From an uncultured Hyphomicrobiales bacterium (lineage in GTDB: Bacteria > Bacteroidota > Ignavibacteria > Kapaibacteriales > UBA2268), in the NCBI GenBank assembly GCA_964473465.1, contig CAYYPE010000002.1, positions 48,487 to 112,486 of the forward strand: 64,000 nucleotides of DNA, written 5' to 3'. This document shows, piece by piece, positions 570 through 59,080 of the stretch (its first letter is position 1; each line of letters starts with the position of its first letter). A program made the translations under genes and the position numbers. Below the pieces are notes generated by a model that was not told the origin of the DNA, made no database searches, and saw nothing but the letters and a program-made list of their open reading frames with translations.

Positions 570-2844
<2,275 letters not shown>

Positions 2845-2866
2845 AAAATCTTATTTAAAAATAAAG

Positions 2867-2900
2867 AAGCCCTGATTTATCTTTTCAGGGCTTTTTTTTT
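2867..2900. terminator. Bidirectional intrinsic terminator between convergent nfnB and glnA
   Basis: AAGCCCTGA...TCAGGGCTT stem followed by a T run. Confidence 0.8.
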
Positions 2901-4446
2901 AGCATCTGTGTATGTCTCTGTGCATTATTCTGCGGGATTCAACAATTTGCTCTTCCTCAGCCATTGAAAGTAGTCTGCTGTTTAGATACCTGTCATTTTC
3001 CGATTGTAGCAACTTAGCTACATAATTTATCACCTGAGATGGGAAAATATTATCTCTTTCATACAAATCTTTTTGTTGTAAGAGCTTTTCTGAGGATTCG
3101 GCACAACTTGTTGCAAGTTCGCTGAGTTCCGAGAAATTAGGTGAACTCTGAATATTAGCCGGAACTTTGCACATTTTAGCAATATCAATTGAAGTTTTGG
3201 CGTTAGATAGTCCCCATTCGACAGCCATAGTAATTCCGGAAAGCAGTAAATGGGCGTTTGCACTTCCATCAGGACTCCTAAGCTCAACAGTCTGCCTTGA
3301 ATTTTCATAATTCAGAGGTTCTTTTTGAGCTGGATTAATTTTTTGAGCCAGATTTTTAGCCTTTGTCCATGCCAGAGGAACTCTTATTAAGGCACTACGA
3401 TTTGAATCGCTCCAGCAAACCTTTGTTGGTGCTTCCTGATTAGGAACAAGTCTAAGGTAGGAAGCAGAAACCATATTGCCAAAAGCAGTTAAGCTTGGTG
3501 CATAATGGCATAGACCCCCAATAAGTTTTAATGATTCTTCGCTTAATTCTCCTGATTCATCTGTCATGATATTTTTTCCATTTTTAAGAAGAGCCATGTG
3601 AATGTGAAGTCCGTTGCCGGCATGACCTTGCTCAAGTTTAGGAAAGAAGGTTGCTACGAAACCATGCTTATAAGCAACATTTCTTATAATCCAGCTTCCA
3701 ATCACTAAATTATCAGCCGAATCTTCAACATTTGTAGGTAAAAACTCTATTTCAACCTGCTCGGCACTTTTGCCGTTCAGTTCGGGGAAGTCGCTCTTGA
3801 CATAATCAAGGGAACCAACCTCATTGTGGGCATATTTTACATTTCCGGTTATTTGTGTCATATATTTTAGCATTTCATTAAGTATATGACCGGTTTTAGC
3901 GAATGGAGGTGAAGCATGATAGCCTTTTTGTTTCGGCAGGGCGTAAGATTTATTGTCGAAATTACCAAGAAGATAGAATTCGAGCTCTCCAAGAGTATGT
4001 AATTCATAACCATGCTTTTCAAATAATTTTTTTGCAGCCTTATGCAAAATGTTATCCGGAACAAAAGAAGCTAAATTGCCATCCCTATCGAAAAATCGGG
4101 CTACAAAATCAAGGCTTGTGTTATCGAAAGGGTTAATAAATGCGGAGCGATACAAAGGAACCACATATAAATCTGACTGTCCCACTTCCACAATACCCTT
4201 GAAAAGGGAAGAGCCATCAACTCTTTCGCCTTCGGCAAGCACCAATTCAGCCTGTAATCTGTTTGTAACAGGTATCTTTAGTTCTTTAATCTTGCCATCA
4301 ATTCCTGTATAGTGTAAAGTAATTTTTTCTATGTTTTTTTCAAGCATTACCTTTATTAGATCTGCCCTCGTTAAATCATTTTTATCTTTATTGGTAATAA
4401 TTGATATAGGGTTAGCTAAACTGAAAATCTCTGAGTTATTTGTCAT
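2899..4446 (-). CDS. glnA: Glutamine synthetase family protein (type I-like)
   Basis: DGSS, ELEFY, HNEVG, GNGLHIH, SYLRLVPNQEAP, NRSALIRVP and ELRSPDGSAN motifs. Confidence 0.85.
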   Translation of the reverse strand: MTNNSEIFSLANPISIITNKDKNDLTRADLIKVMLEKNIEKITLHYTGIDGKIKELKIPVTNRLQAELVLAEGERVDGSSLFKGIVEVGQSDLYVVPLYRSAFINPFDNTSLDFVARFFDRDGNLASFVPDNILHKAAKKLFEKHGYELHTLGELEFYLLGNFDNKSYALPKQKGYHASPPFAKTGHILNEMLKYMTQITGNVKYAHNEVGSLDYVKSDFPELNGKSAEQVEIEFLPTNVEDSADNLVIGSWIIRNVAYKHGFVATFFPKLEQGHAGNGLHIHMALLKNGKNIMTDESGELSEESLKLIGGLCHYAPSLTAFGNMVSASYLRLVPNQEAPTKVCWSDSNRSALIRVPLAWTKAKNLAQKINPAQKEPLNYENSRQTVELRSPDGSANAHLLLSGITMAVEWGLSNAKTSIDIAKMCKVPANIQSSPNFSELSELATSCAESSEKLLQQKDLYERDNIFPSQVINYVAKLLQSENDRYLNSRLLSMAEEEQIVESRRIMHRDIHRC

Positions 4447-4652
4447 AATATTTTAACCTCCGAATTAGGGTTTTATAAATAAAATCAAAAAAAAATGTAA
4501 TATAACACTTTTAAAAAATATGGCAATAGCTTGTTAGTGTCTTTCAATCATACTTCTTTATATTTAATTAGATTTTTGATTTATTGGAATTTTACCAAAA
4601 CGCTTAAAATTAAAATAACTCTGTCTTATTTTTTTTATTTATCGCAAATTAG

Positions 4653-4660
4653 TAATTTTG
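4653..4660 (+). promoter_or_regulatory. Bacteroidota-type -7 promoter element for the arginine catabolism operon
   Basis: TAATTTTG about 280 nt upstream of the OTC start, implying a long 5' leader. Confidence 0.45.
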
Positions 4661-4938
4661 TAATTCTTAAAAACCAAAGGGTTATAATTGAGTCAAATAA
4701 ATCAACATAGTGCTTACATAATATCTGAATCTATAAGTCGGGGAGGAAATCGAGCATTTTGTCCGGCAAAAACCCGTTCAGGTAAAATCCATCAATTCAG
4801 GCACTACACAACAGATGCCCCAGTCTAACATAAGAACCCTGAATTTCAGATTCTATATCTTTGTCTAATATCAAATTAATACATAAATTACATTCTAAAC
4901 AAACATAATTATTTAAAATTTAAATAGGTGATTTCAAT

Positions 4939-5859
4939 ATGAAAAAGGATTTTATATCTGTATCTGATTTTTCTCAGGCAGAAGTCATTGAGACATTCAA
5001 ATTAGCTATTGACATGAAGCAAAACAAAGCAAAATATAGTGAAGGATTGAAGGGCAAAGGTTTATTTATTTATTTTGAAAAAGATTCATTAAGAACAAGA
5101 GTAAGTTTTGACGTTGGCATCCACGAACTTGGTGGATTTTCGGTAGTGGTTGTTGCTGCCAATGAAAGCAGTCGAATAGGAACAAGAGAATCAATATATG
5201 ATGTAGCAAAAAATCTTGAAAGAATGGTTGGCGGAATAATGATGAGAACTTTTAGCCACTCCAAAGTTGTTGATATGGCAAAGCATGCATCAATACCAGT
5301 AATTAACGGTTTAACAGACTATTCGCATCCATGTCAGGCAATGGCTGATTATTTGACCTTTTATGAAAAAAAGGGTGAGCTAAAAGGTAAAAAATTATGC
5401 TACGTCGGTGATGGTAACAATGTTGCCCATTCTTTGATGGAAGCAGGTGCTATTCTTGGAGTAAATGTTACAATTTCAACACCCAAAGGGTATGAGCCAA
5501 ATCTGGTAGCATTCCGGGAAGCTGAAGCACTTGCAAAAGAAACCGGAGCAAAAATTGAAGTTATTCATAATCCAAAAGAAGCAATAAAAGATGCTGATGC
5601 AGTTTATACTGATGTTTGGGCTTCAATGGGACAGGAATCAGAGGCAGCAATGAGAAAGAAAATATTTGCACCATATCAGGTTAATGATGAATTGATGTCT
5701 TATGCAAAGAGTGATGCAATTTTTATGCATTGTTTACCTGCCCACAGAGGCGACGAAGTAACCGATAGCGTAATTGATTCCAAAAATTCAGTTGTCTTCG
5801 ATGAAGCTGAAAACAGGCTGCACGTTCAAAAAGCAATAATGTATCAGCTAATGAAATGA
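4939..5859 (+). CDS. arcB: Ornithine carbamoyltransferase
   Basis: FEKDSLRTRVSF carbamoyl-phosphate motif (SLRT variant), HPCQ, DVWASMGQE, FMHCLP; adjacent to carbamate kinase. Confidence 0.9.
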   Translation: MKKDFISVSDFSQAEVIETFKLAIDMKQNKAKYSEGLKGKGLFIYFEKDSLRTRVSFDVGIHELGGFSVVVVAANESSRIGTRESIYDVAKNLERMVGGIMMRTFSHSKVVDMAKHASIPVINGLTDYSHPCQAMADYLTFYEKKGELKGKKLCYVGDGNNVAHSLMEAGAILGVNVTISTPKGYEPNLVAFREAEALAKETGAKIEVIHNPKEAIKDADAVYTDVWASMGQESEAAMRKKIFAPYQVNDELMSYAKSDAIFMHCLPAHRGDEVTDSVIDSKNSVVFDEAENRLHVQKAIMYQLMK

Positions 5860-5882
5860 AAAACATTAAACAAGGTTTTTAG

Positions 5883-6824
5883 ATGAAAAAAACAGCTTTA
5901 ATTGCAATTGGTGGTAATTCTTTAATCCGTGCAGGAGAAAGAGGAACAATAGATGAGCAGCTAAACAATGCTTATGCTACCGCAAAAAGTATTGCACAAA
6001 TGGTGAAACAGGGTTGGGAATTGGTTATTACTCACGGGAACGGACCACAGGCAGGTGCCGCTCTTTTGCGCTCTGAAAGAGCTGCTTCCGAAGTTTATAC
6101 TCACACTCTCGATATGTGCGTTGCTACAACCCAGAGTGAAATTGGATATATTTTGCAGAGAGCTTTGGAATTTGAGTTCCGCAAGATTGGACTGAGCAAT
6201 TATGTAATTACTTTACCAACCATGGTGCGGGTTGATGAAAAAGATCCAGCTTTCCTGAAGCCGACAAAACCTATCGGTCCTTTCTACTCAAAAGCAGTAG
6301 CTGAAGAAAAAAAGGCTACATTAGGATGGGATATTGTTGAAGATGCTGCACGTGGCTATCGCAGGGTTGTTGCATCTCCCGAACCAATTGAGGTTCTCGA
6401 ACTTGAAGTGATTAAGAAAATTCTTGAACTGGATATTATTATTATCGCTCTTGGCGGAGGTGGAATACCTGTTATTGTTAATTCTGATGGTTCGATTACC
6501 GGGTCCGAAGCAGTAATTGACAAAGACCGTTCGTCAGCCCTCCTTGCAAAGGAATTAAACGTTGATTTGTTTATAATCAGCACTGATACTGATAAGGTTT
6601 ATCTTAATTTCAAGAAAAAGAACCATACAGGAATATCAATGGCAACAGCAGAAGAGATGCAGAAATATTACGACGAAGGACATTTTCCTGCTGGAAGTAT
6701 GGGTCCAAAGGTTGAATCTGCTATCAGATTTATAAAGAATGGCGGCAAAAAAGTTATTATTACTTCGTATGAATACTTGACTGAGGCACTTGATGAAAAG
6801 GCTGGAACTCATATTATTCCATAG
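5883..6824 (+). CDS. arcC: Carbamate kinase
   Basis: AIGGNSL, THGNGPQ, PTKPIGPF, RRVVASP, GGGGIPV, EAVIDKD, GSMGPKV. Confidence 0.95.
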   Translation: MKKTALIAIGGNSLIRAGERGTIDEQLNNAYATAKSIAQMVKQGWELVITHGNGPQAGAALLRSERAASEVYTHTLDMCVATTQSEIGYILQRALEFEFRKIGLSNYVITLPTMVRVDEKDPAFLKPTKPIGPFYSKAVAEEKKATLGWDIVEDAARGYRRVVASPEPIEVLELEVIKKILELDIIIIALGGGGIPVIVNSDGSITGSEAVIDKDRSSALLAKELNVDLFIISTDTDKVYLNFKKKNHTGISMATAEEMQKYYDEGHFPAGSMGPKVESAIRFIKNGGKKVIITSYEYLTEALDEKAGTHIIP

Positions 6825-6883
6825 ATACAGTATGATCTGTCTAAAAATATTGATAATAATTTGAATAACAAATAGAGGAAGAT

Positions 6884-7807
6884 ATGTTACTCGATCATGT
6901 TATATTTTCTCAGCAGTTCACTGTTCCAATTCTAATGGAACTTTTCAACAGGACTGACCATATGAGAAAGATTGTGCAAAGGGGTGGAACGCTCGATTAT
7001 CAGAAAAAAATTATGGCAACCCTTTTCTATGCTCCTTCCACAAGAACAAGGTTTTCATTCGAAGCTGCAATGTATCGTCTCGGGGGTAATGTCCTTTCAA
7101 CAGAACAGGCAAAAATGTTCTCTTCAGAAATTAAGGGTGAAATGCTCGAAGATACAATACGTATAATCGCAAACTATTGCGATATCATTGTCATTCGACA
7201 TCACGAGGAAGGCGGTGCAAAGCGGGCTGCCGATGTTTCACCTATTCCTGTAATTAATGCCGGTGACGGTTCTGGTGGTCAGCATCCAACTCAGGCTCTT
7301 CTGGATCTTTACACTATTTATAATGAATGCAAAACGTTAGACGGACTATCAGTTGCCATAATCGGGGCATTGGACAAAGGCAGAACTGCACGATCTCTTG
7401 CTTATCTGCTAAGCAAATTTGAACGAACAAAAATTTACTTTATCGCTCCTCAGGAAATGCAAATACAACCTGATATTCTCGAACATCTCGAAGAAAAAGG
7501 TATTTCCTATGAACTTTCATCTACCACCGAAAATATTATCAATAAAGTTGATGTGGTTTACCAAACCAGAATAGATAAAGACCGACTGCGAGGAAAAGAA
7601 ATTGACCTTTCTATTTATAATATTGATCAGAATGTTCTCAAAAGGATGAAAAAGAATGCAATTATTCTTCATCCCCTTCCACGTTCAGTCGAAATCAGTC
7701 ATGATGTTGATTCTGACAAGCGTGCTGCTTATTTCCGTCAATCAGAAAATGGACTCTATGTCAGAATGGCCCTTATTTCTATGTTGCTGGATAAAAATGA
7801 AAAATAA
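6884..7807 (+). CDS. pyrB: Aspartate carbamoyltransferase-like catalytic chain (variant motifs)
   Basis: PSTRTRFSF, KGEMLEDT, INAGDG, HPTQALLD, GRTARSL and HPLPR; no pyrI nearby. Confidence 0.8.
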   Translation: MLLDHVIFSQQFTVPILMELFNRTDHMRKIVQRGGTLDYQKKIMATLFYAPSTRTRFSFEAAMYRLGGNVLSTEQAKMFSSEIKGEMLEDTIRIIANYCDIIVIRHHEEGGAKRAADVSPIPVINAGDGSGGQHPTQALLDLYTIYNECKTLDGLSVAIIGALDKGRTARSLAYLLSKFERTKIYFIAPQEMQIQPDILEHLEEKGISYELSSTTENIINKVDVVYQTRIDKDRLRGKEIDLSIYNIDQNVLKRMKKNAIILHPLPRSVEISHDVDSDKRAAYFRQSENGLYVRMALISMLLDKNEK

Positions 7808-7838
7808 ATTTTAAAAAAAGAAAAAAAAGGAAACAAAT

Positions 7839-9035
7839 ATGAACTCAAAAGATTTTATTACTTTAGAAGAACAATATGGCGCTCATAACTATCATCCTCT
7901 GGATGTAGTTGTTCACGAAGCCAAAGGTTGCTGGGTTACAGACGTCGAAGGAAAAAGATATTTAGATTGTTTGGCAGCCTATTCAGCTGTTAATCAGGGG
8001 CACTGCCATCCAAAAATTCTGGAGGTTTTCATCGAGCAGGCTCACCTTGTAACTTTGACGAGTCGAGCTTTCAGAAACGACAAACTTCCTTTGCTCTACA
8101 AAAAATTACATGATATGACCGGCTATGATATGTCCCTACCAATGAATTCAGGGGCTGAGGCAGTCGAAACAGCTATTAAAACAGCTCGCCGATGGGGATA
8201 TGACGTAAAGGGAATTGAAAAAGACAAGGCTGAAATTATCGTAGCAACAGGCAATTTTCATGGAAGAACAACGACAATTGTAGGTTTTTCCGATGACCCG
8301 GCTTCTTACGGTGGATTTGGACCGTTCACTCCCGGATTTGTATTCCATGAATATGGTAATGCAGAAGACCTAAAGAGCAAAATCACAAAAAATACTTGTG
8401 CAGTGCTAATCGAGCCAATTCAGGGCGAGGGTGGAATTGTTATACCGCCTGAGGGATATTTGAAGCAAGTCGAAACAATCTGCCGTGAAAACAATGTCTT
8501 GTTAGTGATGGATGAAATCCAGGCAGGATTAGGAAGGAGCGGAAAACTGTTTGCTCATTACTATGAAAATGTTCGCCCGGATATAGTTATAATCGGAAAA
8601 GCACTCTCCGGTGGATTTTATCCTGTATCTGCTATTTTAGCAGACAAAGAAATCCTTGGAGTAATAAAGCCCGGTCAACATGGTTCTACTTTCGGTGGCA
8701 ATCCTCTTGCCGCAGCTGTCGCAGTCAGATCTCTTGAAGTAATTGAGGAAGAAAACCTTATTCAACGATCATTTGAACTTGGTGAATACTTTATGCAAAA
8801 GCTCAGAGAAATTGAAAGTCCTCATATTAAACTTGTTAGAGGTAAGGGACTTTGGATTGGTTTTGTGCTCGATACAAAGGCAAGGCCATATTGCGAAAAA
8901 CTGATGGGCGAAGGAATCCTTTGCAAGGAAACCCACGATAACATCATTAGATTTGCCCCTCCATTAGTAATCACAAAAGAAGAAATTGACTGGGCGGTAG
9001 AAAGAATCGAAAAAGTTGTAAAATCATTAGATTAA
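7839..9035 (+). CDS. rocD: Ornithine--oxo-acid transaminase
   Basis: YGAHNYHPL, YSAVNQGHCHP, NSGAEAVE, FHGRT, EPIQGEGG, DEIQAG, GKALSGG (PLP lysine), HGSTFGGNPL. Confidence 0.92.
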   Translation: MNSKDFITLEEQYGAHNYHPLDVVVHEAKGCWVTDVEGKRYLDCLAAYSAVNQGHCHPKILEVFIEQAHLVTLTSRAFRNDKLPLLYKKLHDMTGYDMSLPMNSGAEAVETAIKTARRWGYDVKGIEKDKAEIIVATGNFHGRTTTIVGFSDDPASYGGFGPFTPGFVFHEYGNAEDLKSKITKNTCAVLIEPIQGEGGIVIPPEGYLKQVETICRENNVLLVMDEIQAGLGRSGKLFAHYYENVRPDIVIIGKALSGGFYPVSAILADKEILGVIKPGQHGSTFGGNPLAAAVAVRSLEVIEEENLIQRSFELGEYFMQKLREIESPHIKLVRGKGLWIGFVLDTKARPYCEKLMGEGILCKETHDNIIRFAPPLVITKEEIDWAVERIEKVVKSLD

Positions 9036-9230
9036 AATTCTTTATGGATATCAATTATAGATATAATGAGGTGTCTTTTCTTGCCGATCCATAAGGTTCA
9101 TTAACTGAAGAATTGCATCTTGTAAGTCTTTTAAATTTATTTTTCGGTTTTTTTATATCTTACAGACAAAAGTAACATAATAAATGAAATCAATCAAAAT
9201 AAATAGTATTATTAATAATTAGGATTTAAT

Positions 9231-10553
9231 ATGTCAGAAAAAAAAGTTCGTGCAATAATTATCGGAGCAGCCGGTAGAGATTTTCATAATTTTAATGTGA
9301 TATTCAGGAATAATCCTGACTACGAGATTGTTGCCTTTACGGCAGCACAGATTCCTGATATTGAAGGCAGGATGTATCCCCCTTCCCTTGCCGGAGAATA
9401 CTATCCAAATGGAATTCCCATCTATGGGGAAGAAGAATTGCCAGAATTAATTAAACAACATAATGTTGATGAATGTATCTTATCATATTCAGACCTGTCT
9501 TATGATACTGTGATGCATATAGGATCAACTGTCATTTCTTCTGGTGCCAAATTTTCTATGCTCGGCTCCTATCCAACAATGATAAAATCATCAAAACCAG
9601 TTATATCAATAACAGCGGTAAGAACAGGATGCGGAAAGAGTCAGACTACAAGGGCAGTCGTCAAGGCTTTACTCGAAGCAGGTAAAAAAGTTGTTTCCGT
9701 TCGTCATCCTATGCCATACGGCGATCTTGAAAAAATGAAAGTGCAGAGATTTGCAGAGATAGCTGACCTTGACAGACATAATTGCACAATCGAAGAGATG
9801 GAAGAATACGAACCACATATTGCTATGGGTAGTGTAATTTATTCTGGTGTTGATTACGAAGCAATTTTGCGAGAAGCTGAAAAAGAAGCTGATGTCATTG
9901 TCTGGGATGGCGGAAATAACGATATGCCATTTTATAAACCTGATTTATCAATCGTTGTCGCAGATCCTTTGAGACCCGGTCACGAGATAAGCTATTATCC
10001 CGGAGAGGTAAATCTCAGAATGGCAGATGTTGTTGTCATAAATAAAGTGGATTCAGCCTATCCTGAGGATGTTGAAATGGTCCTTGAAAACATACGGGAA
10101 TATAACCCAAATGCTCAGGTGATTTTGGCAGCTTCAGCAATTATGGTCGAAGATCCATCAATCATCACTGGTAAACGTGTTCTGGTTATCGAGGATGGTC
10201 CTACTTTAACTCATGGCGAAATGTCAATCGGAGCCGGCGTTGTTGCTGCAAGAAGGTTTGGTGCAATTGAATTGGTTGATCCCAGACCTTATATAGTTGG
10301 TAAAATTCAGGACACATTCGATACTTACCCCGAAATCGGGACTTTACTTCCAGCAATGGGCTATGGCGAACAGCAGATGAAAGATTTGGAGGCTTCAATT
10401 GCCAATACTGATTGCGATTCTGTTGTTATTGGCACTCCAATCAATTTAGGGAGGTTCATCAAAATCAAACAGCCAAATACCAGAGTGTTTTATGAACTTG
10501 CCGAAATAGGATTGCCAAATATTAAGTCAATCTTGAGAAGATTCATAGACTAA
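9231..10553 (+). CDS. arcE: P-loop protein of the cPG-synthetase-like family; probable arginine synthetase (ArcE)
   Basis: N-terminal GAAGRDFHNFN...AFTAAQIPDIEGR, P-loop AVRTGCGKS, RHPMPYG, EEYEPH, WDGGNND, EDGPTLTHG; operonic with OTC and carbamate kinase. Confidence 0.8.
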   Translation: MSEKKVRAIIIGAAGRDFHNFNVIFRNNPDYEIVAFTAAQIPDIEGRMYPPSLAGEYYPNGIPIYGEEELPELIKQHNVDECILSYSDLSYDTVMHIGSTVISSGAKFSMLGSYPTMIKSSKPVISITAVRTGCGKSQTTRAVVKALLEAGKKVVSVRHPMPYGDLEKMKVQRFAEIADLDRHNCTIEEMEEYEPHIAMGSVIYSGVDYEAILREAEKEADVIVWDGGNNDMPFYKPDLSIVVADPLRPGHEISYYPGEVNLRMADVVVINKVDSAYPEDVEMVLENIREYNPNAQVILAASAIMVEDPSIITGKRVLVIEDGPTLTHGEMSIGAGVVAARRFGAIELVDPRPYIVGKIQDTFDTYPEIGTLLPAMGYGEQQMKDLEASIANTDCDSVVIGTPINLGRFIKIKQPNTRVFYELAEIGLPNIKSILRRFID

Positions 10554-10576
10554 AAAGATTTTTCATAAATTTTTCC

Positions 10577-10613
10577 GTTCTGTCGGCTATTATTGCCGGC
10601 AGAACTTTTTTTT
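10577..10613 (+). terminator. Intrinsic terminator of the arc operon
   Basis: GTTCTGTCGGC / GCCGGCAGAAC stem followed by 8 T. Confidence 0.8.
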
Positions 10614-10733
10614 ACAAAAATTAAGAAAATTAGAATATGAGAAATGGAAAGATTTTTAGATTTCTAAATACTAAAATTAATATAAATAATTTTAAACTCA
10701 GTTGAGTTTAATCCCATAATGAAACAAAAAAAA

Positions 10734-11039
10734 CTAAGTAGTTGTTTTTGTTTCGGTAGCTGGTTTTGAATCTTGCTTATTAACTGTTTTTGAATGCTCA
10801 GAAGAGCCATTAGTCTTTGGAGAACTATTATTTTTATGAACATAGTCAGTGAGGTAGAACCCTGAACCTTTGAAAACCAGTCCAATATTTTTACTTATGA
10901 GTCTTTCAACCTTCCCCTGACCCTTAGCTTCCTGTTCACATATTTCGGGGGGGCAATGCTCAAGAGCATTTTCTGTTATTCTTTGCTGATATTCAAATTC
11001 TTTACCGCAAGTCAAACATTTATAATCATAAACCGGCAT
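10734..11039 (-). CDS. FmdB-family zinc-ribbon protein
   Basis: MPVYDYKCLTCG...CPPEIC...FKGSGFYLTDY; start placed at the ATG of MPVYDY. Confidence 0.85.
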   Translation of the reverse strand: MPVYDYKCLTCGKEFEYQQRITENALEHCPPEICEQEAKGQGKVERLISKNIGLVFKGSGFYLTDYVHKNNSSPKTNGSSEHSKTVNKQDSKPATETKTTT

Positions 11040-11111
11040 TTTTTTACCACCCATTTTTTTAAAAACTGTGCATGATAACGATACTTTTTTTTTAATATTG
11101 TAGTTTATGGT

Positions 11112-12359
11112 TTAAACTTTACAAACCATTTTATATAACCGGTTATTTATGACTCCAAGAGCTTCGTATTGCCCGGATCTCCAGTTGTAAATTGGCTGAA
11201 CGGTAAAATCAACCATTTTGCCGGCAACCAGCTCTTTGTTCTGAAGGTATCTGACAACAAGTGCAGAGTTTGTTGAATAGGCAACAGTAGGACTATTCGG
11301 TTTTTTAGCATAATTTATATTTGACATCTTGCTTTCATTAACATTGAATTTTTGACCGCTGACATTAAAAAAGCAATCAAGGTCACAACCAAGAAAATAT
11401 AGCTCCGATCCATCATGGGTGAACATTGGGTTGCCAGTAAAGGAGCTGCCGCCAGAATACTCTGTGCTGCTGAAAACAATTAACTCTTTGGAGCTGACTC
11501 GGGCTTTATAAGCAAGCATTGGCAAGGATGGATGCAAAATCAAACCTTCAATAGCATCATAAGGTTTGCCAATCAAAGGTTCATAATAATCATCGGAAAT
11601 CAGAAAAGCAACCATATCGTTGGAAAATCTCCCGGCAGTTACCGCAGCACAGGTTCCATCACGATTGATGCTGACATCTCCGATAAATTTCAAAGCTTCC
11701 GAAATGTTTTTCTCGGATTGGTAGATTTCCCATTGATTTCCATTTCTTCCTGCATACATAAAAGTATTATCATACCAGAAACCAATCGGAATTATATCGT
11801 CAAAGAGCTGGCTTTCCTTTCCTTCGATAACTATTGTTTTTTTGCTGCTTCTGTAACCGGTAAATGCAATTCTGTTTCCCCAATAGTTAAGAAAAAAGCG
11901 ACCATCTCTCTGATAAACCTTCATTTTTTTATCACCATAAACAATTGTTTCAAGTCCGGACTCTGTATAAGCATAAGCAAGAACTTTCCCCGAAGGACTG
12001 AATCTCAACTCAGTCGGTTCGGCTGTTGATGGAACAGCGATTTTCTTATCTTTTGTATAAATATTCCATTGTGTGTTGTCCCGACCAAAAAAAGCCCAGT
12101 TGTCCCCATCAGGAGAGATTTCGAATGACCTGACATCAAGAAGCGGCTCGGATTGAATTCCATTTATTGTCATCCTGAAGGAGTTTGAGTAGGGTTTTGT
12201 TAAAGCCCACCACACTCCTGTTGTATCAATACCATAGGATACAAGTTGTTCTGAGCCATCAAGCATCAGAGTATCGCTGCATCTGTTTGAATAAGATTCA
12301 AGGCTTCCGTTTATAAACAAGAATAATATTAAAAAAAACAAACCTAAAATTCTAACCAT
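11112..12359 (-). CDS. Secreted hypothetical protein, probable beta-propeller (TolB/WD40-like)
   Basis: Hydrophobic signal (MVRILGLFFLIL...) and blade-like motifs SPDGDNWAF, FSPSGKVLAY, FTHDGSELYF. Confidence 0.6.
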   Translation of the reverse strand: MVRILGLFFLILFLFINGSLESYSNRCSDTLMLDGSEQLVSYGIDTTGVWWALTKPYSNSFRMTINGIQSEPLLDVRSFEISPDGDNWAFFGRDNTQWNIYTKDKKIAVPSTAEPTELRFSPSGKVLAYAYTESGLETIVYGDKKMKVYQRDGRFFLNYWGNRIAFTGYRSSKKTIVIEGKESQLFDDIIPIGFWYDNTFMYAGRNGNQWEIYQSEKNISEALKFIGDVSINRDGTCAAVTAGRFSNDMVAFLISDDYYEPLIGKPYDAIEGLILHPSLPMLAYKARVSSKELIVFSSTEYSGGSSFTGNPMFTHDGSELYFLGCDLDCFFNVSGQKFNVNESKMSNINYAKKPNSPTVAYSTNSALVVRYLQNKELVAGKMVDFTVQPIYNWRSGQYEALGVINNRLYKMVCKV

Positions 12360-16895: not shown

Positions 16896-19829
16896 ATGAC
16901 AAAGAAATTACTTTTTTTTATTATTGTGATAAATGTCTTTCTCACAATAAACCTATTTTCGCAGATAGACGGCAGGAAGTTACCTCCCAGTCTTGATGTT
17001 GAACAATATGGTAAGCCTCAAATAATGAGGATGAAAGATTACTACAAAGCTGGCAAGCTTCCCCCGGAAGCTTTCATCGAGCAAAAACTGCCCGATAATT
17101 TAATGTCTCCCACGGGGGTTAATTTAATCAATATGTCGGGAAATTCAGGCCATCAGTCAGAGACATGGGTCTCAATTAATCCAATGAATCCACTTCAAAT
17201 TGTTGGTTCTTCAAACGATTACCGATATAATGACATATCTTCCGGTTATCGTATGGCTGCTTACTATACTACAGATGGAGGAAATACATGGAAAACATCT
17301 ACCACACCAAGAAACATGGATCTTTGGATTAAAAGACCAGCTCAGGGAGGTATGACAAACTTCGATCCGGGTCTTGCTTTTGACACAAAAGGAAATATGT
17401 TTTATTCTTTCGGCTTCGCCCAAGTTCCAGATGATGATCTGGAAGGCGACAATGGAGTTTTTGTCTGTCGTTCATCTGATGGCGGCAAAACATGGCAAGA
17501 AGCTATCCCGGTAGCATTGGAAACAAACGGAACCGTATCGCAACCCTTTCACGACAGATACATGATAGCCTGTGATGTTCAGGAGAATTCTCCATACAAG
17601 AACACTCTTTACGTAACATGGAAAAGATTCAGAGTTAACGCAGGCATTTGCTTTTCATCTTCAAAAGATGAAGGAGAAAATTGGTCAACAATAACACTAA
17701 TTCCCGGAGGAACTGATAACACACAATCCCCTACTCCTGTTGTCGGACCCGATGGTGAGCTTTATGTTGCATGGCAGTCCCGTGGAAATAATAACACAAC
17801 TAATGCTATGGTTCAAAAATCGACAGATGGGGGCAAAAGATGGCTGCCTGCTCCTGTTTTGGCACAAACCGTAAGAAACCATGGTATTGTCAATTCTGAA
17901 AGCGGCAGAAATGTTCTTCCCGATAAGCAAAACATCCGTATTTCATCCTATCCAGCTATTTCAGTTGATTGCTCGAATGGACCCAGAAGAGGATGGGTTT
18001 ATATAGTTCAATCCGGTAAGGGTAGCGATGGAAATAATGGTATTTTCTACACCTATTCGACTGATGGTGGTAATAAATGGTCTGATCAGATAAGAATTGA
18101 TGATAACTCACTTGGTAATGATGTCTTTTTCCCTGCAATTTCAGTAGATCCAAAAACTGGTTTAATAGCTGTGCTATACTATAGCTCTCAAAACGACCCT
18201 CAAAACAAAGGCGTTGATGCTTACCTTGCAATTTCATTTGATGGATTAAATTTCAAAAATATTAGAATAACCCCACAAACTTGGTATATCAATGATCCAT
18301 CGGATGTTTCATATCAGGGAAAGGGTAACTATTACTGGGGCGATTATTCATCTGTTGTTGCTTATAATGGTAAGGTATATCCCTGTTTCTGGATGCCATC
18401 AAATCCACAAGGGAACTTCTGGACAAATTTTCTTTACACTGCTATAATGTCCACAGCACCAAATCCACCTACTAACCTGCAAGCCGAAATTCCATCTCAG
18501 AATTCAATTGTTTTAAAGTGGGTTGATCCCCAAAAGAACGGTCTTGGAGGAGATCTTGGCAATTTTAAAATTCTTGTTTATAGGGATAATAATAAAATTG
18601 GCGAGGTGGATAAAGGAGTTCAAACCTATACTGATAATAATATTGAAGATGGCAAAATTTATAATTATTCACTAAAAACTAAATCTGAAGATAATTCTGA
18701 AAGCGAGTTCGTTTATATTTCTCTTACTGCCGGAGGTGCTCTCGAACCAAAAGCCCCAACAGATTTATCACCTTATCCTGTTGCTAACGGGGTCAGACTG
18801 CGTTGGAAAAATCCGACTGAGCATATTGACAATTCGTTTTTCCATGACTTTGAAAGAATTGAAATTTATAATGAGGATAAGTTAGTAGTTCAAATTAATA
18901 AGCCAAACATACAGGCTGGAGAATTTTCAGAAGCTGTAATTGAGTTGCCAACAGAAAAATTCTATAAGTTAAAGATTTTAGCTGTTGGTAAAAGAGGAAC
19001 TATTGAAACAAAGAGTAAGTATTCAGAAGAAATCCTTGCATACGCAGGCTCTCCTTTGACCACACTCAGTGAAAGTTTCGACAATGCCCAATTAATTCCG
19101 AATTACTTAGAATCAACCGGTGAGCAAAAATGGGGCAAAACAAGTGAAGTTTCTTATACTCCTGATTTCTCTTTCACTGATTCACCAAACGAGAACTATG
19201 GAAACAGAATAGACAATCAGGTTATATTTGCTCCTGTTATTGTTCAACCAATGAATACAACTTTAAGTTTCAAACACATCTGTATAATTGACTCAACCGG
19301 AGATTATGGCGTCTTGAGTGTTTCAAAAGATTTAAAGAATTGGGAAGATTTACTATGGTTCGACAATCGCCGTTCAAAAGATTTTGTTGATGATCCGAAG
19401 ACTGCCAAATGGTTTTCCGAAGGCAGAAGCCTTGAAAAATATGAAGGTGATATAATTTATATATCTTTCAGACTGGTTTCCAATCCTTTAAGAAATAAAG
19501 CCGGCTGGTTTATTGATGACCTTGCAGTTAATAATGACCCGCTCACTGTTGAACATTTTAATGATTTACTCAATGCTATATTTGTGTCAACTTCACCTAA
19601 TCCAACGGTTGGAAAAATCAAGCTAAATGTATCTTTGCCGTTGCCGTCAAACATAGAAATTTCATTACTTGACATTTTAGGCAACAAGGTTTCTACCAAT
19701 GAAAATAAATATTATCAGGCGGGACAGCATGACATTGAAATGGATTTATCACATTTGCTCTCGGGTATTTACTTCTGCAATATAAAAACAAACATTGGAA
19801 TTAAAACAATAAAAATCATCAAAAATTAA
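16896..19829 (+). CDS. Secreted BNR/Asp-box (sialidase-like) propeller + FN3 + T9SS C-terminal domain
   Basis: Several S/T-x-D-G-G-x-x-W Asp-boxes (TTDGGNTW, SSDGGKTW, SKDEGENW, STDGGKRW, STDGGNKW), WGDY, FN3-like PNPPTNL...LKW, and C-terminal SPNP...DILG...SGIYF. Confidence 0.8.
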   Translation: MTKKLLFFIIVINVFLTINLFSQIDGRKLPPSLDVEQYGKPQIMRMKDYYKAGKLPPEAFIEQKLPDNLMSPTGVNLINMSGNSGHQSETWVSINPMNPLQIVGSSNDYRYNDISSGYRMAAYYTTDGGNTWKTSTTPRNMDLWIKRPAQGGMTNFDPGLAFDTKGNMFYSFGFAQVPDDDLEGDNGVFVCRSSDGGKTWQEAIPVALETNGTVSQPFHDRYMIACDVQENSPYKNTLYVTWKRFRVNAGICFSSSKDEGENWSTITLIPGGTDNTQSPTPVVGPDGELYVAWQSRGNNNTTNAMVQKSTDGGKRWLPAPVLAQTVRNHGIVNSESGRNVLPDKQNIRISSYPAISVDCSNGPRRGWVYIVQSGKGSDGNNGIFYTYSTDGGNKWSDQIRIDDNSLGNDVFFPAISVDPKTGLIAVLYYSSQNDPQNKGVDAYLAISFDGLNFKNIRITPQTWYINDPSDVSYQGKGNYYWGDYSSVVAYNGKVYPCFWMPSNPQGNFWTNFLYTAIMSTAPNPPTNLQAEIPSQNSIVLKWVDPQKNGLGGDLGNFKILVYRDNNKIGEVDKGVQTYTDNNIEDGKIYNYSLKTKSEDNSESEFVYISLTAGGALEPKAPTDLSPYPVANGVRLRWKNPTEHIDNSFFHDFERIEIYNEDKLVVQINKPNIQAGEFSEAVIELPTEKFYKLKILAVGKRGTIETKSKYSEEILAYAGSPLTTLSESFDNAQLIPNYLESTGEQKWGKTSEVSYTPDFSFTDSPNENYGNRIDNQVIFAPVIVQPMNTTLSFKHICIIDSTGDYGVLSVSKDLKNWEDLLWFDNRRSKDFVDDPKTAKWFSEGRSLEKYEGDIIYISFRLVSNPLRNKAGWFIDDLAVNNDPLTVEHFNDLLNAIFVSTSPNPTVGKIKLNVSLPLPSNIEISLLDILGNKVSTNENKYYQAGQHDIEMDLSHLLSGIYFCNIKTNIGIKTIKIIKN

Positions 19830-31507: not shown

Positions 31508-31588
31508 TCTGTTGAAAAGAAAACATTTTGAATTTCAAAAATATTTCTTATTTTAGAAATGCAGTTTTTTTTCAGCGAGGAGGTAAAA

Positions 31589-34500
31589 ATGAAATCAATA
31601 TTACCCACCCGTTTATTATTTGTAATTTTTGTTAATCTGATTGTCTTGACATCCAAGGCTTATTCCTGTCCCATTATCGAAGTTCCTTTGCCCGAAAGAG
31701 TAGGAAATTCATCTCTTATTGTCGAGGGAAAAATAACAGATAAGTTTAGTCTCTGGAATAATCAGCAAAATTTGATATTAACGCTTCATAAGGTAAAGGT
31801 TTTTAAGATATTTAAGGGAAGTATTCGAGAAACAGAAATTGAAATTCTGGCTGAGGGAGGAAGAATTGGCGATATCGATCATATAATTTATCCGAATGAT
31901 AATTTATCAATAGGAGATTATGGAATATTTTGCCTTGAAAAATCTGAATATTCAAGCTTATCCGGCTATAAGGGCAATTTTTATAAAATTTATGCAACAA
32001 AGCAGGGTTTTATTAAATATGATAAATTAAATAATATTGCAACTGATTATTTTAAAGAATACAAAGGACTGCCCGAAACCATTTATTCATTAATCGAGAA
32101 ACTAACAGGGCAAAAATTCAGAGAAATTCAGAAAAATGATTTATTTTTTGATGAAAAAAAAGATAAAAAGGATAAACCGCTTGTAACAATAAATTCATTT
32201 GCTCCTACCTCCATTACCGCTGGAACAGGCTCAATATTAGCAATTAACGGGACAGACTTCGGTGCTACCAGAGGCTCGGTTAGATTTAGAAATGCAGATA
32301 ATGGGGGAATTGACTATATAACTGTATCGGGAGCTACTTCTATTCCATACTGGTCAAATACCGACATATTGGTGATTGTTCCAAAAAATGCCTGCAGTGG
32401 CACCATTCAGGTTGTTAATTCACTAAACGATGTAGGAACTTCTTCAACATCTCTGAATATACCTTATGCAGTTCAGTCAGCTTCAGAAACATTACCCATA
32501 TTTCTCGTTAATTTAAATGGTAGTGGAGGCTATACCTTCAGGTTTTCCCAGACTTTTTTGAGGAATACAGCAGCCCTGAATGCTTTCCTTAGAGCCCTTG
32601 AAACATGGCGATGTGGGACTTATGTAAATTTTGGATACACACTTACCCCTGTTCAGGATTCTTGTCCGAGTTATAATAATGTTAATACAATAACATTTAC
32701 AAATCAGAATTGTGATCTTTCGGCAGGGCTTTTAGCTCAAACAAGATTTGCCTATACTAACTGTGGAACAGGAGCTTTTTTCTATGAAATGGATATTATA
32801 TTTTCGAGGGGAATAAATTGGAATTTCGATTTAAACAGAACCTGCACTGCTTGTGTTGACTTCCAGTCTGTTGCACTTCATGAAATTGGCCATTGCCATT
32901 GCCTCGCACATTCATGCGGCACTAATGATGTGATGTATTATTCACTTGCCAATGATGTTGAACGCCGTTTTTTAAATTATGATAGCGATCTTGCAGGAGG
33001 CAATTATATAATGGATAGCAGCAGGGTTTTTAATCGTTGCAGTCGCTCTCCGATGGAAGCCTTAAACAGTTCGAATTGCTCTGTAACTTATTCACCTGTT
33101 GCAAAATTCAACGTTTCAGCCACTCAGGGCTGCAAAAGTCTTTCCGTTAATTTTAACGATCAAAGCGAAAACAATCCCACAAGCTGGAGCTGGGATATTG
33201 ACAATAATGGCACTTATGATTATTTCATTCAAAATCCAAGTCACACTTATAATTCCCCGGGGAGTTATTCAGTTAAACTAAAAGTTACTAATGCCATTGG
33301 TAGTGATAGTTTGATAAAAAACAACATTATTAACGTTTATCCTTTGCCAAACCCAGATTTTCTGGGGGATTTATCCGTATGCGAAAATGACTCAGTTATT
33401 TATACCACAACAAGATTGAGTGGAAATTCTTATTTATGGTCGGTTACCGGGGGTAGAATTTCTGGGGTTAATAATTCTGATACTCTCAAGGTAATTTGGT
33501 CAGGGGGTCCCAATGGTTCTGTAACATTAAAGCAAACAGTAGATTCAACTGGCTGCACTGATTCTTTGACTAAAAGTGTAGTAATTAATCCATTACCATC
33601 GCCTAAAATCTCGGGTTATGAAAAGATATGTTTTGGCTCTCAAGCTGTATATACAATTACTCCAAAGCCAAACGTAAAATCAGAATGGTTTGTTAATGGA
33701 GGAATTATTAACGGACAGAGTACAAATGACTCAGTTATGGTCAAATGGAACAGTGCAGGCAATAATGCTGTAAAAGTCATTCAAACTGACACAATTACAG
33801 GATGCAGGGATTCAGCCTTATATTCTGTGATTGTTTATCCACTACCAGTTGTAGAATTTCATGGTGAAACAAATTCTTGTATAAATTCACAAATACTTTA
33901 CTATGTAAATGGAAACGACAGTTTATCTTACTACTGGTCAGTCATAAATGGCAGAATTCTTACTAATAAAGAAAATGACAGCGTTACGGTAATATGGGAT
34001 CATGTTGGGCAAGGGTCTATTAAAGTAGTTTTTGTTAACGATTCCACCTTATGTTTAGACTCATTGGCTTATGATGTAACAATATATCAAGGACCAAAAA
34101 ATCCTATATCCGGCGATACAGTAGTTTGCCTTAATACAATTGGTAATTATTATTCCATAAATGACAGTGGTATAGAATACAACTGGAAAGCAAACAACGG
34201 AACAATCTTGGGTTCAAATACTAATTATCAGGTTCAGGTGCTTTGGGATGTAAGGAGTAAAAACAGGTTAACGCTTGTTCAGAAAGATCTGGCTACCGGT
34301 TGTATTGACTCGACAATTTTCGATGTTACTGTCAATCCTTTGCCAAAGGCATCATTTAATGCTGGTGAGGAAGCTTGCTTAGGATGTCTTGTCAAATATA
34401 GTGCTAATTCATCTTTATTATTCTATAAGTGGGAAGCAAATAAAGGAAAAATTGAGGGACCGGATGATAAAAAGGATGTAAGTGTCAGATGGAATGACGA

Positions 34501-35451: not shown

Positions 35452-35877
35452 ATGCCCTATATTAAAATATGGATTCATTTAATATTCTCTACAAAGAATC
35501 GGGAACCTTTAATTACCAAAGAAATAATATCTGAAATAATCGGGCATATTAAATCAAATGCCAAGGCAATAGATATTTATATTGATTTAATTAATGGAGT
35601 TAAAGACCATATTCATATACTTCTTTCGTTAGGAAGTGAACAAAATATCGCAAAAATTGTTCAGATGATTAAGGAAGAATCATCTTTTTGGATAAGCAAG
35701 AATAAAATCTCAAAATCAAAATTTGAATGGCAGGATGAGTATATTGCTTTATCAGTTAGCGGATCAAATGTTGATAAAATTAGGGAGTATATCAAGAATC
35801 AGGAAGAGCATCATAGAGTAAAGACATTTGCAGAGGAATATGAAATGTTTATAAATAAAATAAAAGAATTTGGCTAA
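35452..35877 (+). mobile_element. tnpA: IS200/IS605-family Y1 transposase (REP-associated tyrosine transposase-like); no tnpB
   Basis: WIHLIFSTKNR, HUH motif DHIH, catalytic YIKNQEEHH; flanked by palindromes. Confidence 0.9.
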
Positions 35878-59077: not shown

Positions 59078-59080
59078 ATA

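Follow-up and report, generated by a model that had tools for sequence, protein, structure and literature searches.

The segment from position 4649 to 10605 of the window, the 64-kb stretch of DNA that was analysed, probably forms one transcription unit encoding an arginine synthetase pathway as in Thermococcus kodakarensis. We give this reading, which includes a predicted ArcE activity, co-transcription of the genes and a net catabolic direction, a probability of roughly 0.8. The host is a Kapabacteria-like bacterium (Bacteroidota, FCB group) of the mesophile type. Genes for an ornithine carbamoyltransferase (OTC), a carbamate kinase (CK), an ATCase-family protein, an ornithine aminotransferase (RocD) and a 440-aa P-loop protein follow one another in this order, separated by spacers of 23, 59, 31 and 195 bp. 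Table 1 gives the positions and the evidence for all features.

Table 1 Features of the predicted arginine operon (positions within the window)
Feature	Position	Strand	Evidence or remark
AT-rich block TTAGTAATTTTG, candidate operon promoter	4649..4660	+	~28 nt in front of the small ORF
Conserved small ORF, ~46 codons	4688..4828	+	TTG start here, ATG in some relatives
Ornithine carbamoyltransferase (arcB/argF)	4939..5859	+	TIGR00658 398 bits (cut-off 281); NF001986 424 (cut-off 306)
Carbamate kinase (arcC)	5883..6824	+	TIGR00746 359.5 vs cut-off 358.25 (marginal); NF009007 348.9 vs 266
ATCase-family (PyrB-like) carbamoyltransferase	6884..7807	+	TIGR00670 305.7 vs cut-off 236.95
Ornithine--oxo-acid aminotransferase (rocD)	7839..9035	+	TIGR01885 549.9 vs cut-off 378.4; Pfam Aminotran_3 3e-126
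Deletion scar with the leftover 3' part of an isochorismatase-family gene	9036..9230	+	Comparison with L090/L091
ArcE orthologue, P-loop, cPGS/LpxK-like fold	9231..10553	+	Sequence orthology to Thermococcales proteins, predicted fold, gene context
Intrinsic terminator, operon end	10577..10605	+	11-bp stem, 7 GC pairs, 7-nt loop, T-run

The original prediction of five co-oriented genes sharing a single terminator was confirmed: all five ORFs lie on the same strand, and the site directly 3' of arcE is the strongest terminator-like site within 4400-11200 and the sole convincing one. Besides its scores above the equivalog cut-offs, the OTC contains the motifs SLRTR, HPCQ, DVWASMG and HCLP. The predicted absence of arcA and arcD from the window also held, as a Pfam scan of its ORFs of at least 110 aa that do not largely overlap a longer ORF gave no match to arginine deiminase (ADI; amidinotransferase/ADI family) and none to an arginine/ornithine antiporter. 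Genes for a glutamine synthetase (GS) and an NADPH-glutamate synthase (GOGAT) lie divergently upstream of the cluster, and secreted T9SS peptidases are also encoded in the window.

The product of the last gene is an ArcE-type arginine synthetase orthologue, for which the corresponding catalytic activity is predicted. It aligns with a Thermococcus peptonophilus protein (P0533) with 62% identity and 79% positives, without a gap over 436 aa, and with 17 further Thermococcales proteins at 61-63% identity; the score against Thermococcales ArcE is 590 bits. The bridge to TK2200, the characterised enzyme of T. kodakarensis, consists of this Thermococcales cluster, whose members share at least 90% identity with each other, and of the TK2200 termini derived from primers: the ends of P0533 (MAEKKKKRVLI and KNCEKLKK) match exactly what the published in-gene primers for TK2200 encode. 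In a neighbour-joining (NJ) tree the protein falls into the core clade that holds the Thermococcales. A Walker A motif (RTGCGKS) and a WDGGNND motif are present, and no Pfam or NCBIfam model matched the protein apart from a sub-threshold cobW P-loop hit.

The identical five-gene order was found with different flanks in other Kapabacteria (L003, L092-L094, L096) and in an Ignavibacteriaceae MAG (L075), and thus the arrangement is not due to chance. Spacers in these conserved clusters can be as short as overlaps to 28 bp, and the slot gene varies among clusters, being isochorismatase-like, GH3 or missing. Not all Kapabacteria possess the cluster, as one locus comprises rocD-arcE only (L097) and another arcE alone (L098). 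Across many phyla, 15 of 80 genome loci carry CK and/or OTC within ~2.5 kb of the ArcE homologue, one protein (P0126) is a natural CK-ArcE fusion, and an arginyl-tRNA synthetase gene adjoins the ArcE homologue in 8 loci.

In the proposed pathway ArcE would convert arginine, ADP and Pi to citrulline, ATP and NH3, OTC would phosphorolyse citrulline to ornithine and carbamoyl phosphate, and CK would form ATP, CO2 and NH3 from carbamoyl phosphate and ADP. The net yield would be 2 ATP per arginine, with no need for an arginine deiminase. RocD could drain ornithine to glutamate semialdehyde, while the PyrB-like enzyme may tap the same carbamoyl-phosphate pool, either for pyrimidine precursors, as known from T. 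kodakarensis, or for another acceptor.

Since the ArcE reaction is near equilibrium, the cluster may run in either direction, and the flux could be catabolic, with 2 ATP per arginine, or serve an ArgGH-independent synthesis of arginine. According to the second option the same genes would mainly constitute an acetyl-free, ArgG/ArgH-independent biosynthetic pathway, in which RocD forms ornithine from glutamate semialdehyde, carbamoyl phosphate for OTC and the PyrB-like enzyme comes from CK or from a carbamoyl-phosphate synthetase (CPS) encoded elsewhere, and ArcE finally makes arginine from citrulline, ATP and NH3. We regard a mainly biosynthetic role as the less likely one, but an anabolic or amphibolic function is a serious rival and several observations speak for it. 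ArcE is reversible and supports arginine formation from citrulline in vivo, and its authors proposed a biosynthetic role in organisms without ArgG/ArgH (PMC11032458). The related Ignavibacterium album lacks specifically argGH (PMC3362086), which fits an anabolic ArcE equally well, and Thermonerobacter MAGs appear to be devoid of canonical arginine synthesis. The operon itself includes a carbamoyltransferase gene of the biosynthetic (pyrB-like) type, and the GS and GOGAT genes lie divergently upstream of it; this neighbourhood, however, is not kept in other lineages. Furthermore, CK and RocD are classically catabolic, and the CK of T. kodakarensis could not stand in as a source of carbamoyl phosphate (PMC13260591). 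I. album requires yeast extract (PMC3362086). It and Thermonerobacter are predicted to consume amino acids and peptides, and such a peptide-consuming lifestyle, with the secreted T9SS peptidases of the window, speaks for the catabolic direction, which is our preferred reading.

The 195-bp spacer in front of arcE is not an ordinary intergenic region but the scar of a recent deletion in a gene for an isochorismatase-family hydrolase, as judged by sequence comparison. A 95%-identical relative (L090/L091) harbours a 220-aa isochorismatase-family gene between rocD and arcE, with spacers of 8 and 28 bp. The DNA of the window aligns with that of the relative on both sides of a ~520-bp gap, and positions 9047-9200 still encode residues 169-219 of this protein with ~65% identity. 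The spacer might suggest that arcE is expressed apart from the four upstream genes, that OTC and CK belong to a conventional ADI pathway with arcA outside the window, and that the adjacency has no meaning for a pathway. Weak promoter-like matches within the spacer, the Kapabacteria that have arcE alone or with rocD only, and the fact that the search for arcA covered 64 kb of the genome are in line with this scenario. Nevertheless, it appears very improbable. Because the gap stems from the loss of a gene which a close relative retains in a tightly packed arrangement, the doubt it raised is largely removed; relatives have spacers of 8 to 54 bp or another co-oriented gene at this place, and no terminator was predicted between rocD and arcE. 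Moreover, homologues of arcE are paired with CK and OTC genes in many phyla, in one case as a CK fusion, and ArcE and ADI were reported to be almost mutually exclusive (PMC11032458).

For TK2200 its authors reported a fold similar to cyclic 2,3-diphosphoglycerate synthetase (cPGS) and LpxK with an LpxK-like nucleotide pocket; a low similarity to cPGS was also noted (PMC11032458). The top PDB folds retrieved by Foldseek with the AF2 model of the 440-aa protein (pLDDT 89) were likewise cPGS (8ORU, 1e-18) and LpxK (4EHX/4EHY, 1e-8), with 15-16% identity to cPGS in the structural alignment. By phmmer the protein scored 20.7 bits (E 2e-3) against 8ORU/8ORK and 35.7 bits against 9SXB, and Thermococcus ArcE is similarly remote from cPGS (42/22 bits vs 36/21 for the window protein). 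That the protein is itself a cPGS, or a generic GTPase with no role in arginine metabolism, can be practically dismissed: cPGS is the closest solved fold and homologues bear source names such as 'cyclic 2,3-diphosphoglycerate synthase' and 'predicted GTPase', but 21-36 bits and ~15% identity to solved cPGS stand against 590 bits to Thermococcales ArcE, the same misleading names sit on the Thermococcales ArcE proteins, and the family extends to mesophilic bacteria and one eukaryote. cPG is not known to occur in mesophilic bacteria or eukaryotes of the kind that carry the family. Close similarity to the characterised cPGS of Methanothermus fervidus was not found for the 440-aa protein. The similarity and phylogeny check that had been suggested for this gene thus supports the original assignment to ArcE rather than cPGS within an OTC/CK operon, the protein grouping with Thermococcales ArcE and not with cPG synthetases. 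The 'cPGS' names on ArcE homologues are most likely misannotations carried over from weak similarity.

The third gene of the operon encodes a protein whose best PDB match is Arabidopsis PYRB (6ypo, 315 bits, ~55% identity by eye). The protein contains the motifs STRTR, HPTQ and HPLPR, and in an alignment to 6ypo and 1ml4 it retains every carbamoyl-phosphate ligand and the two Arg ligands of aspartate. The motif TRIQxER, in contrast, is replaced by TRIDKDR, so that Asp takes the place of the conserved Gln at the ligand of the aspartate beta-carboxylate; the Gln of RxQxER (Q231 in E. coli, Q312 in Arabidopsis) is absent from this protein. The PALA beta-carboxylate is bound by Q312 in the Arabidopsis enzyme (PMC7878868). 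Without exception, the window protein and all six cluster-encoded orthologues examined have the Asp. Because of this exchange we name the protein a member of the ATCase family and not a proven ATCase. The exchange is a new lead.

A second new lead is the conserved ORF upstream of OTC. In 6 independent lineages of Kapabacteria it precedes the gene that opens the operon; in L097 it is located in front of rocD instead of OTC and hence tracks the first gene of the operon. It was found nowhere else in L001-L095 (~1.2 Mb) nor elsewhere in the window. Its C-terminal consensus is P-K-[TS]-R-[AS]-x-K-[IL]-x-x-F-[RK]-H-Y-x-T-D-A-P-[IV]-stop. Differences amount to 78/45/168 at codon positions 1/2/3 and the invariant Arg is written with 5 different codons, a clear coding signature; the ORF is conserved as a protein and not as an RNA. 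The region gave no Rfam match and the ORF no NCBIfam match, and no significant RNA fold or attenuator hairpin was detected downstream of it (z = -0.02). We consider it a candidate leader or arrest peptide that may control the operon, but a small protein of different function is also conceivable.

The AT-rich block further upstream is conserved among five Kapabacteria lineages when their upstream regions are aligned, and has a single match in the window, vs 0.04 expected. It includes an element of the type TAnnTTTG, which is the Bacteroidota -7 promoter consensus, and is a candidate for the operon promoter.

It is conceivable, although we hold the idea at rather less than even odds, that an undescribed nascent-peptide sensor controls the operon, with the small ORF stalling the ribosome on arginine, ornithine or citrulline, and that the PyrB-like member may take a new acceptor substrate. 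If true, either the sensor ORF or the new acceptor would mean that the cluster is not just the archaeal pathway copied to a new place.

The cluster is an already published kind of system, extended by two enzymes and by a possibly regulatory mini-gene conserved upstream. The novelty claimed in the original prediction was overstated, since bacterial ArcE homologues, including those of Bacteroidota, and the proximity of some of them to arcB and/or arcC were published by Michimori et al. in 2024 (PMC11032458). The locus represents a clean, syntenic bacterial example of a pathway so far shown biochemically in one hyperthermophilic archaeon only, and ArcE is most likely the true identity of many proteins that databases call 'cyclic 2,3-diphosphoglycerate synthase' or 'GTPase'. 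The energy yield predicted for uncultured FCB bacteria that scavenge peptides becomes 2 ATP instead of 1 per arginine. Predicted auxotrophies possibly change as well, as ArcE may serve relatives that were scored as arginine-deficient for missing argGH. Two concrete and inexpensive experimental leads are offered by the leader ORF and the altered pocket of the ATCase-like enzyme.

The fungal arginine attenuator peptide is a metabolite-sensing arrest peptide. Further known leader peptides are SpeFL, which senses ornithine (bioRxiv 10.1101/604074), and TnaC, which senses tryptophan (PMC8450073). The small ORF resembles these three in being short and in its position within the 5' leader of an operon for amino-acid catabolism; its amino-acid conservation over the last ~20 codons, roughly the length of the exit tunnel, and a Pro near the stop are further points of resemblance. 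In sequence it is similar to none of the three. With PyrB (E. coli; Arabidopsis 6ypo) the third enzyme shares an NCBIfam equivalog score above the cut-off as well as the carbamoyl-phosphate and Arg ligands; it deviates by the Asp in place of the beta-carboxylate-binding Gln and by the location of its gene within an arginine operon instead of with pyr genes, with no pyrI nearby. The nearest solved folds of the window ArcE, cPGS (Methanothermus fervidus, 8ORK/8ORU) and LpxK (Aquifex aeolicus, 4EHX/4EHY), are all P-loop kinase-like, but identities of 12-16%, the substrates and the biological context set them apart. The ADI pathway of bacteria and haloarchaea (arcABC(D)) likewise gains ATP from arginine-derived citrulline by OTC and CK and has an operon layout, whereas the window lacks arcA, encoding an amidinotransferase-fold hydrolase, and arcD, and the first step would fall to a P-loop enzyme, with the energy saved in a second ATP.

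The closest known system is the arginine synthetase pathway of T. kodakarensis, consisting of ArcE/TK2200, ArcB/TK0871 and ArcC/TK2158 (Michimori, Yokooji, Atomi 2024, PMC11032458; Michimori et al. 2026, PMC13260591). All three enzyme families recur in the window cluster, with no arcA nearby. In T. kodakarensis, pyrimidine synthesis draws on carbamoyl phosphate from arginine (PMC13260591); a link from carbamoyl phosphate to the pyrimidine-type carbamoyltransferase is plausible here. The window pathway, predicted from its genes, belongs to a mesophile-type FCB bacterium. Contrary to the earlier assumption that arcE is clustered with the OTC and CK genes in T. kodakarensis, TK2200, TK0871 and TK2158 are dispersed there, whereas the window combines their counterparts in one predicted operon and adds rocD, the PyrB-like gene with its Gln-to-Asp exchange, a variable slot gene and the conserved upstream small ORF.

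The window, which comes from a Kapabacteria/Kapaibacterium-like bacterium of the Bacteroidota (FCB group), holds five co-oriented genes (see table), and the original prediction that they are closed by a single terminator was confirmed by the ORFs, by curated protein models and by the terminator itself. The ornithine carbamoyltransferase (OTC) carries the canonical motifs SLRTR, HPCQ, DVWASMG and HCLP. As also predicted, neither an arginine deiminase (arcA) nor an arginine/ornithine antiporter (arcD) was found in Pfam scans of the window, which took in all ORFs of at least 110 aa not largely overlapping a longer ORF. A glutamine-synthetase-like gene and an NADPH-glutamate-synthase pair lie 5′ of the cluster, in a neighbourhood (570–4446) common only to the window and its closest relative. 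Elsewhere the window encodes a transposase, numerous large secreted proteins bearing peptidase and T9SS (Por_Secre_tail) sorting domains, and two neighbouring genes without family match.

Features of the arginine gene cluster, its surroundings and related loci (window positions unless a relative's locus, L, is named)
Feature	Position	Strand	Evidence or remark
NADPH-glutamate-synthase pair	570–1439 and 1420–2844	+	upstream of the cluster
Glutamine-synthetase-like gene	2899–4446	−	divergent; under GlnA equivalog cut-off
TTAnTAATTTTG block	4649–4660		~28 nt 5′ of small ORF
Small ORF, ~46 codons	4688–4828	+	110 nt 5′ of OTC start; conserved C-terminus
OTC	4939–5859	+	TIGR00658, 398 bits (cut-off 281)
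Carbamate kinase (CK)	5883–6824	+	TIGR00746, 359.5 (358.25); NF009007, 349 (266)
Aspartate-carbamoyltransferase-family protein	6884–7807	+	TIGR00670, 306 (237)
Ornithine–oxo-acid aminotransferase (RocD)	7839–9035	+	TIGR01885, 550 (378)
Gap before arcE	9036–9230		195 bp
440-aa protein (ArcE orthologue)	9231–10553	+	comparison with Thermococcales proteins
Intrinsic terminator	10577–10605		directly 3′ of last gene; sole convincing one in 4400–11200
T9SS/peptidase proteins (examples)	16896–19829, 31559–35314, 40995–43037, 48593–54181
IS200/Y1-type transposase gene	35452–35877
Two ~405-aa genes	57863–60304		between glycogen-synthase-like and FBPase genes
Small ORF in relatives	L090 1952–2092; L092 ~1580–1720; L094 ~1641–1781; L003 4726–4860; L096 end 2609; L097 end 5689
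Isochorismatase-family hydrolase gene	L090 6310–6972		RutB/biuret-hydrolase-like, below cut-offs
Arginyl-tRNA synthetase–arcE loci	L020, L030, L031, L035, L058, L076, L078, L083

The 440-aa product of the last gene had no Pfam or NCBIfam match except for a cobW P-loop hit below threshold, and its closest solved sequence relatives, cyclic 2,3-diphosphoglycerate synthetases (cPGS), matched only weakly (9SXB, 35.7 bits; 8ORU/8ORK, 20.7 bits). The characterised arginine synthetase ArcE (TK2200 of Thermococcus kodakarensis) was reached through published in-gene primers, degenerate back-translation, metagenome contigs and a homology search. The primers specify MAEKKKKRVLI at the N-terminus and ...KNCEKLKK-stop at the C-terminus (PMC13260591 supplement). 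The back-translated N-terminus pattern matched six Thermococcus-like metagenome contigs, three of which encode complete 449-aa proteins starting with MAEKKKKRVLILGAAGRDFHNFN and ending in KNCEKL(K/R)(K/R)E; the forward primer shows 1–2 mismatches in 33 nt to these three. A search seeded on one of them led to named proteins from Thermococcus, Pyrococcus and Palaeococcus, and both primer-derived termini are exact in the T. peptonophilus protein P0533. The 440-aa protein aligns with P0533 without gaps over 436 residues (62% identity, 79% positives, 590 bits), and its identity to 17 other Thermococcales members is 61–63%. An alternative seed picked by amino-acid composition (P0124) was abandoned, as it matched only DPANN and Bathyarchaeota relatives.

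Thermococcus ArcE is as distant from cPGS (42 and 22 bits) as is the 440-aa protein. In an NJ tree the window protein, Kapaibacterium and an Ignavibacteriaceae homologue fall within a core clade containing the Thermococcales, while Thermoproteota homologues form deeper branches. The AlphaFold model (pLDDT 89) has cPGS 8ORU (E 1e-18, 15% identity) and LpxK (4EHX/4EHY, E 1e-8) as its nearest solved folds, which is what Michimori et al. reported for TK2200. The 440-aa protein therefore does not group with true cPG synthetases and is, as predicted, an ArcE orthologue, with presumed arginine synthetase activity.

The family is very large: a library of 1.8 billion proteins contained 3587 representatives with E ≤ 1e-3 to the 440-aa protein. 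Its members come from archaea (Thermoproteota, Desulfurococcales, Thermoplasmata, Bathyarchaeota, DPANN), bacteria (Chloroflexota, Bacillota, Planctomycetota, Nitrospirota, Ignavibacteria) and the eukaryote Creolimax; among 20 cluster representatives looked up by name, Thermococcus was absent. This spread matches the arcE distribution described by Michimori et al. (PMC11032458). In their sources the homologues go by "cyclic 2,3-diphosphoglycerate synthase" or "predicted GTPase", and Thermococcales ArcE and its bacterial orthologues (proteins P0409–P0542, P0009 etc.) are likewise listed in RefSeq/GenBank as "GTPase" or "cyclic 2,3-diphosphoglycerate synthase". Since ArcE orthologues are so distant from true cPGS, such annotations are probably wrong. 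The family also includes an 806-aa homologue split by an intein that bears a LAGLIDADG homing-endonuclease domain (P0229) and a divergent Bacteroidota paralogue of 419 aa from Saccharicrinis aurantiacus (P0208/P0276/P0277, 35–36% identical), in which Walker A GxGKS is changed to SDATKT and which may be non-catalytic or repurposed.

The order OTC–CK–ATCase-like–RocD–ArcE was also present in Kapaibacterium CP058732 (L003), where the flanks are unrelated, and again in the relatives' loci L092/L093, L094 and L096. It recurs in an Ignavibacteriaceae MAG (L075) with an ArcE of 63% identity and a RocD–ArcE spacer of 28 bp. A 440-aa gene 5′ of OTC in L092, considered as a second ArcE copy, encodes an unrelated membrane protein. 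The cluster is not obligatory, since L097 has rocD–arcE only and L098 arcE alone. A contig scan seeded on a Thermoproteota homologue yielded 80 genome loci from many phyla, with Thermococcales absent among them; in 15 of these the arcE homologue has CK and/or OTC as a neighbour at a distance of no more than about 2.5 kb. Arginyl-tRNA synthetase lies directly 5′ of arcE in 8 loci (Anaerolineae, Bathyarchaeota); two other repeated neighbours are an oligopeptide ABC ATPase, in 8 loci, and an aldehyde dehydrogenase, in 6. Furthermore, a 766-aa protein from a Logan metagenome contig (P0126) is a natural fusion of CK (residues 3–309; NF009007, 314 bits, cut-off 266) and an ArcE domain (327–759), a Rosetta-stone link between the two.

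The gap between rocD and arcE had been named as a possible break in transcription. In L090/L091, from a relative that is 95% identical and has matching flanks, the slot is filled by a gene for a 220-aa isochorismatase-family hydrolase, packed with spacers of only 8 and 28 bp. Residues 169–219 of this hydrolase remain encoded at window positions 9047–9200, and the DNA of window and relative aligns on either side of a missing stretch of ~520 bp. According to this comparison, the gap is a recent internal deletion rather than a conserved regulatory spacer. In more distant Kapabacteria the slot contains a gene of the GH3 (beta-N-acetylhexosaminidase-like) type, and in L096 and L075 it is empty; a GH3 remnant within the window gap was ruled out (tblastn E > 0.1), the remnant being isochorismatase-family. 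The content of the slot thus varies but is always co-oriented, an arrangement that speaks for transcriptional read-through into arcE. A sigma-70 promoter scan, uninformative for this lineage, gave 24 hits compared to 21.7 expected from shuffles.

Upstream of OTC a small ORF was detected that ends in the window with ...PAKTRSGKIHQFRHYTTDAPV-stop. Its C-terminal ~20 residues (consensus PK[TS]R[AS]xK[IL]xxF[RK]HYxTDAP[IV]-stop) recur in six independent lineages of Kapabacteria, each time 5′ of the operon's first gene (rocD in the case of L097), and were found nowhere else in L001–L095 (about 1.2 Mb) or in the window. Differences at codon positions 1/2/3 number 78, 45 and 168, and five codons (CGT, AGA, CGC, AGG and CGA) are used across lineages for the invariant Arg; the variation is of the coding type. 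The conserved TTAnTAATTTTG block 5′ of the ORF contains TAnnTTTG, which we take to be a Bacteroidota-type −7 element. No NCBIfam model matches the small ORF. A riboswitch or attenuator hairpin was rejected, as Rfam gave no match in the leader even at E ≤ 1 (across the window only one tRNA) and the leader 3′ of the ORF folds no better than shuffles. We consider the small ORF a candidate leader peptide, possibly a metabolite-sensing arrest peptide by analogy with SpeFL, TnaC and AAP.

The ATCase-family protein keeps STRTR, HPTQ and HPLPR as well as the two arginines that serve as aspartate ligands. Nevertheless Asp at residue 231 replaces the Gln of the RxQxER motif (TRIDKDR, compared to TRIQRER in Arabidopsis 6ypo and TRIQKER in P. 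abyssi 1ml4). To our knowledge Gln occupies this position in all ATCases. The corresponding residue of Arabidopsis ATC, Q312, is a ligand for the beta-carboxylate on the aspartate moiety (PMC7878868). All six cluster-encoded orthologues examined have the Asp, as does the window protein, and a literature search on Gln231/Arg229 returned nothing. Judged from these residues, the protein may remain an ATCase or may use a substrate other than aspartate.

By homology to the T. kodakarensis pathway, ArcE would convert arginine, ADP and Pi to citrulline, ATP and NH3, OTC would then give ornithine and carbamoyl phosphate, CK would yield a second ATP, and RocD would turn ornithine into glutamate semialdehyde. 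Curated models and ArcE orthology support the predicted ArcE-type arginine pathway with RocD and a second carbamoyltransferase in both identity and pathway. CK and RocD are classic catabolic enzymes, and the T9SS sorting domains on secreted peptidases encoded in the window make the organism look like a peptide scavenger. For these reasons a mainly catabolic or carbamoyl-phosphate-hub role seems likelier than an anabolic or amphibolic one, with flux toward arginine or in both directions. The latter role strikes us as rather improbable, even though the ArcE reaction is near equilibrium, runs toward arginine in vivo and has been suggested to be biosynthetic in organisms without argG/argH (PMC11032458); argGH and proC are reported missing from the Ignavibacterium album genome (PMC3362086), and Thermonerobacter MAGs are predicted to lack arginine and proline synthesis.

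The original prediction overstated the novelty of the cluster, since arcE homologues were already described in 2024 as widespread in bacteria, with Bacteroidota (Petrimonas) named, and some as lying near arcB and/or arcC; ArcE and ADI are reported there to be nearly mutually exclusive (PMC11032458). The main texts of the two ArcE papers do not show the five-gene layout that includes rocD and a pyrB-like gene. The added value is modest and consists of a tight bacterial operon and two leads, the candidate leader ORF and the Gln-to-Asp carbamoyltransferase. A clustering of ArcE with OTC and CK in T. kodakarensis had been assumed inaccurately, as the genes there are TK2200, TK0871 and TK2158. In that archaeon ArcE/ArcB provide carbamoyl phosphate for pyrimidines (PMC13260591, 2026); the carbamoyltransferase adjoining CK could consume arginine-derived carbamoyl phosphate, which would parallel this supply.
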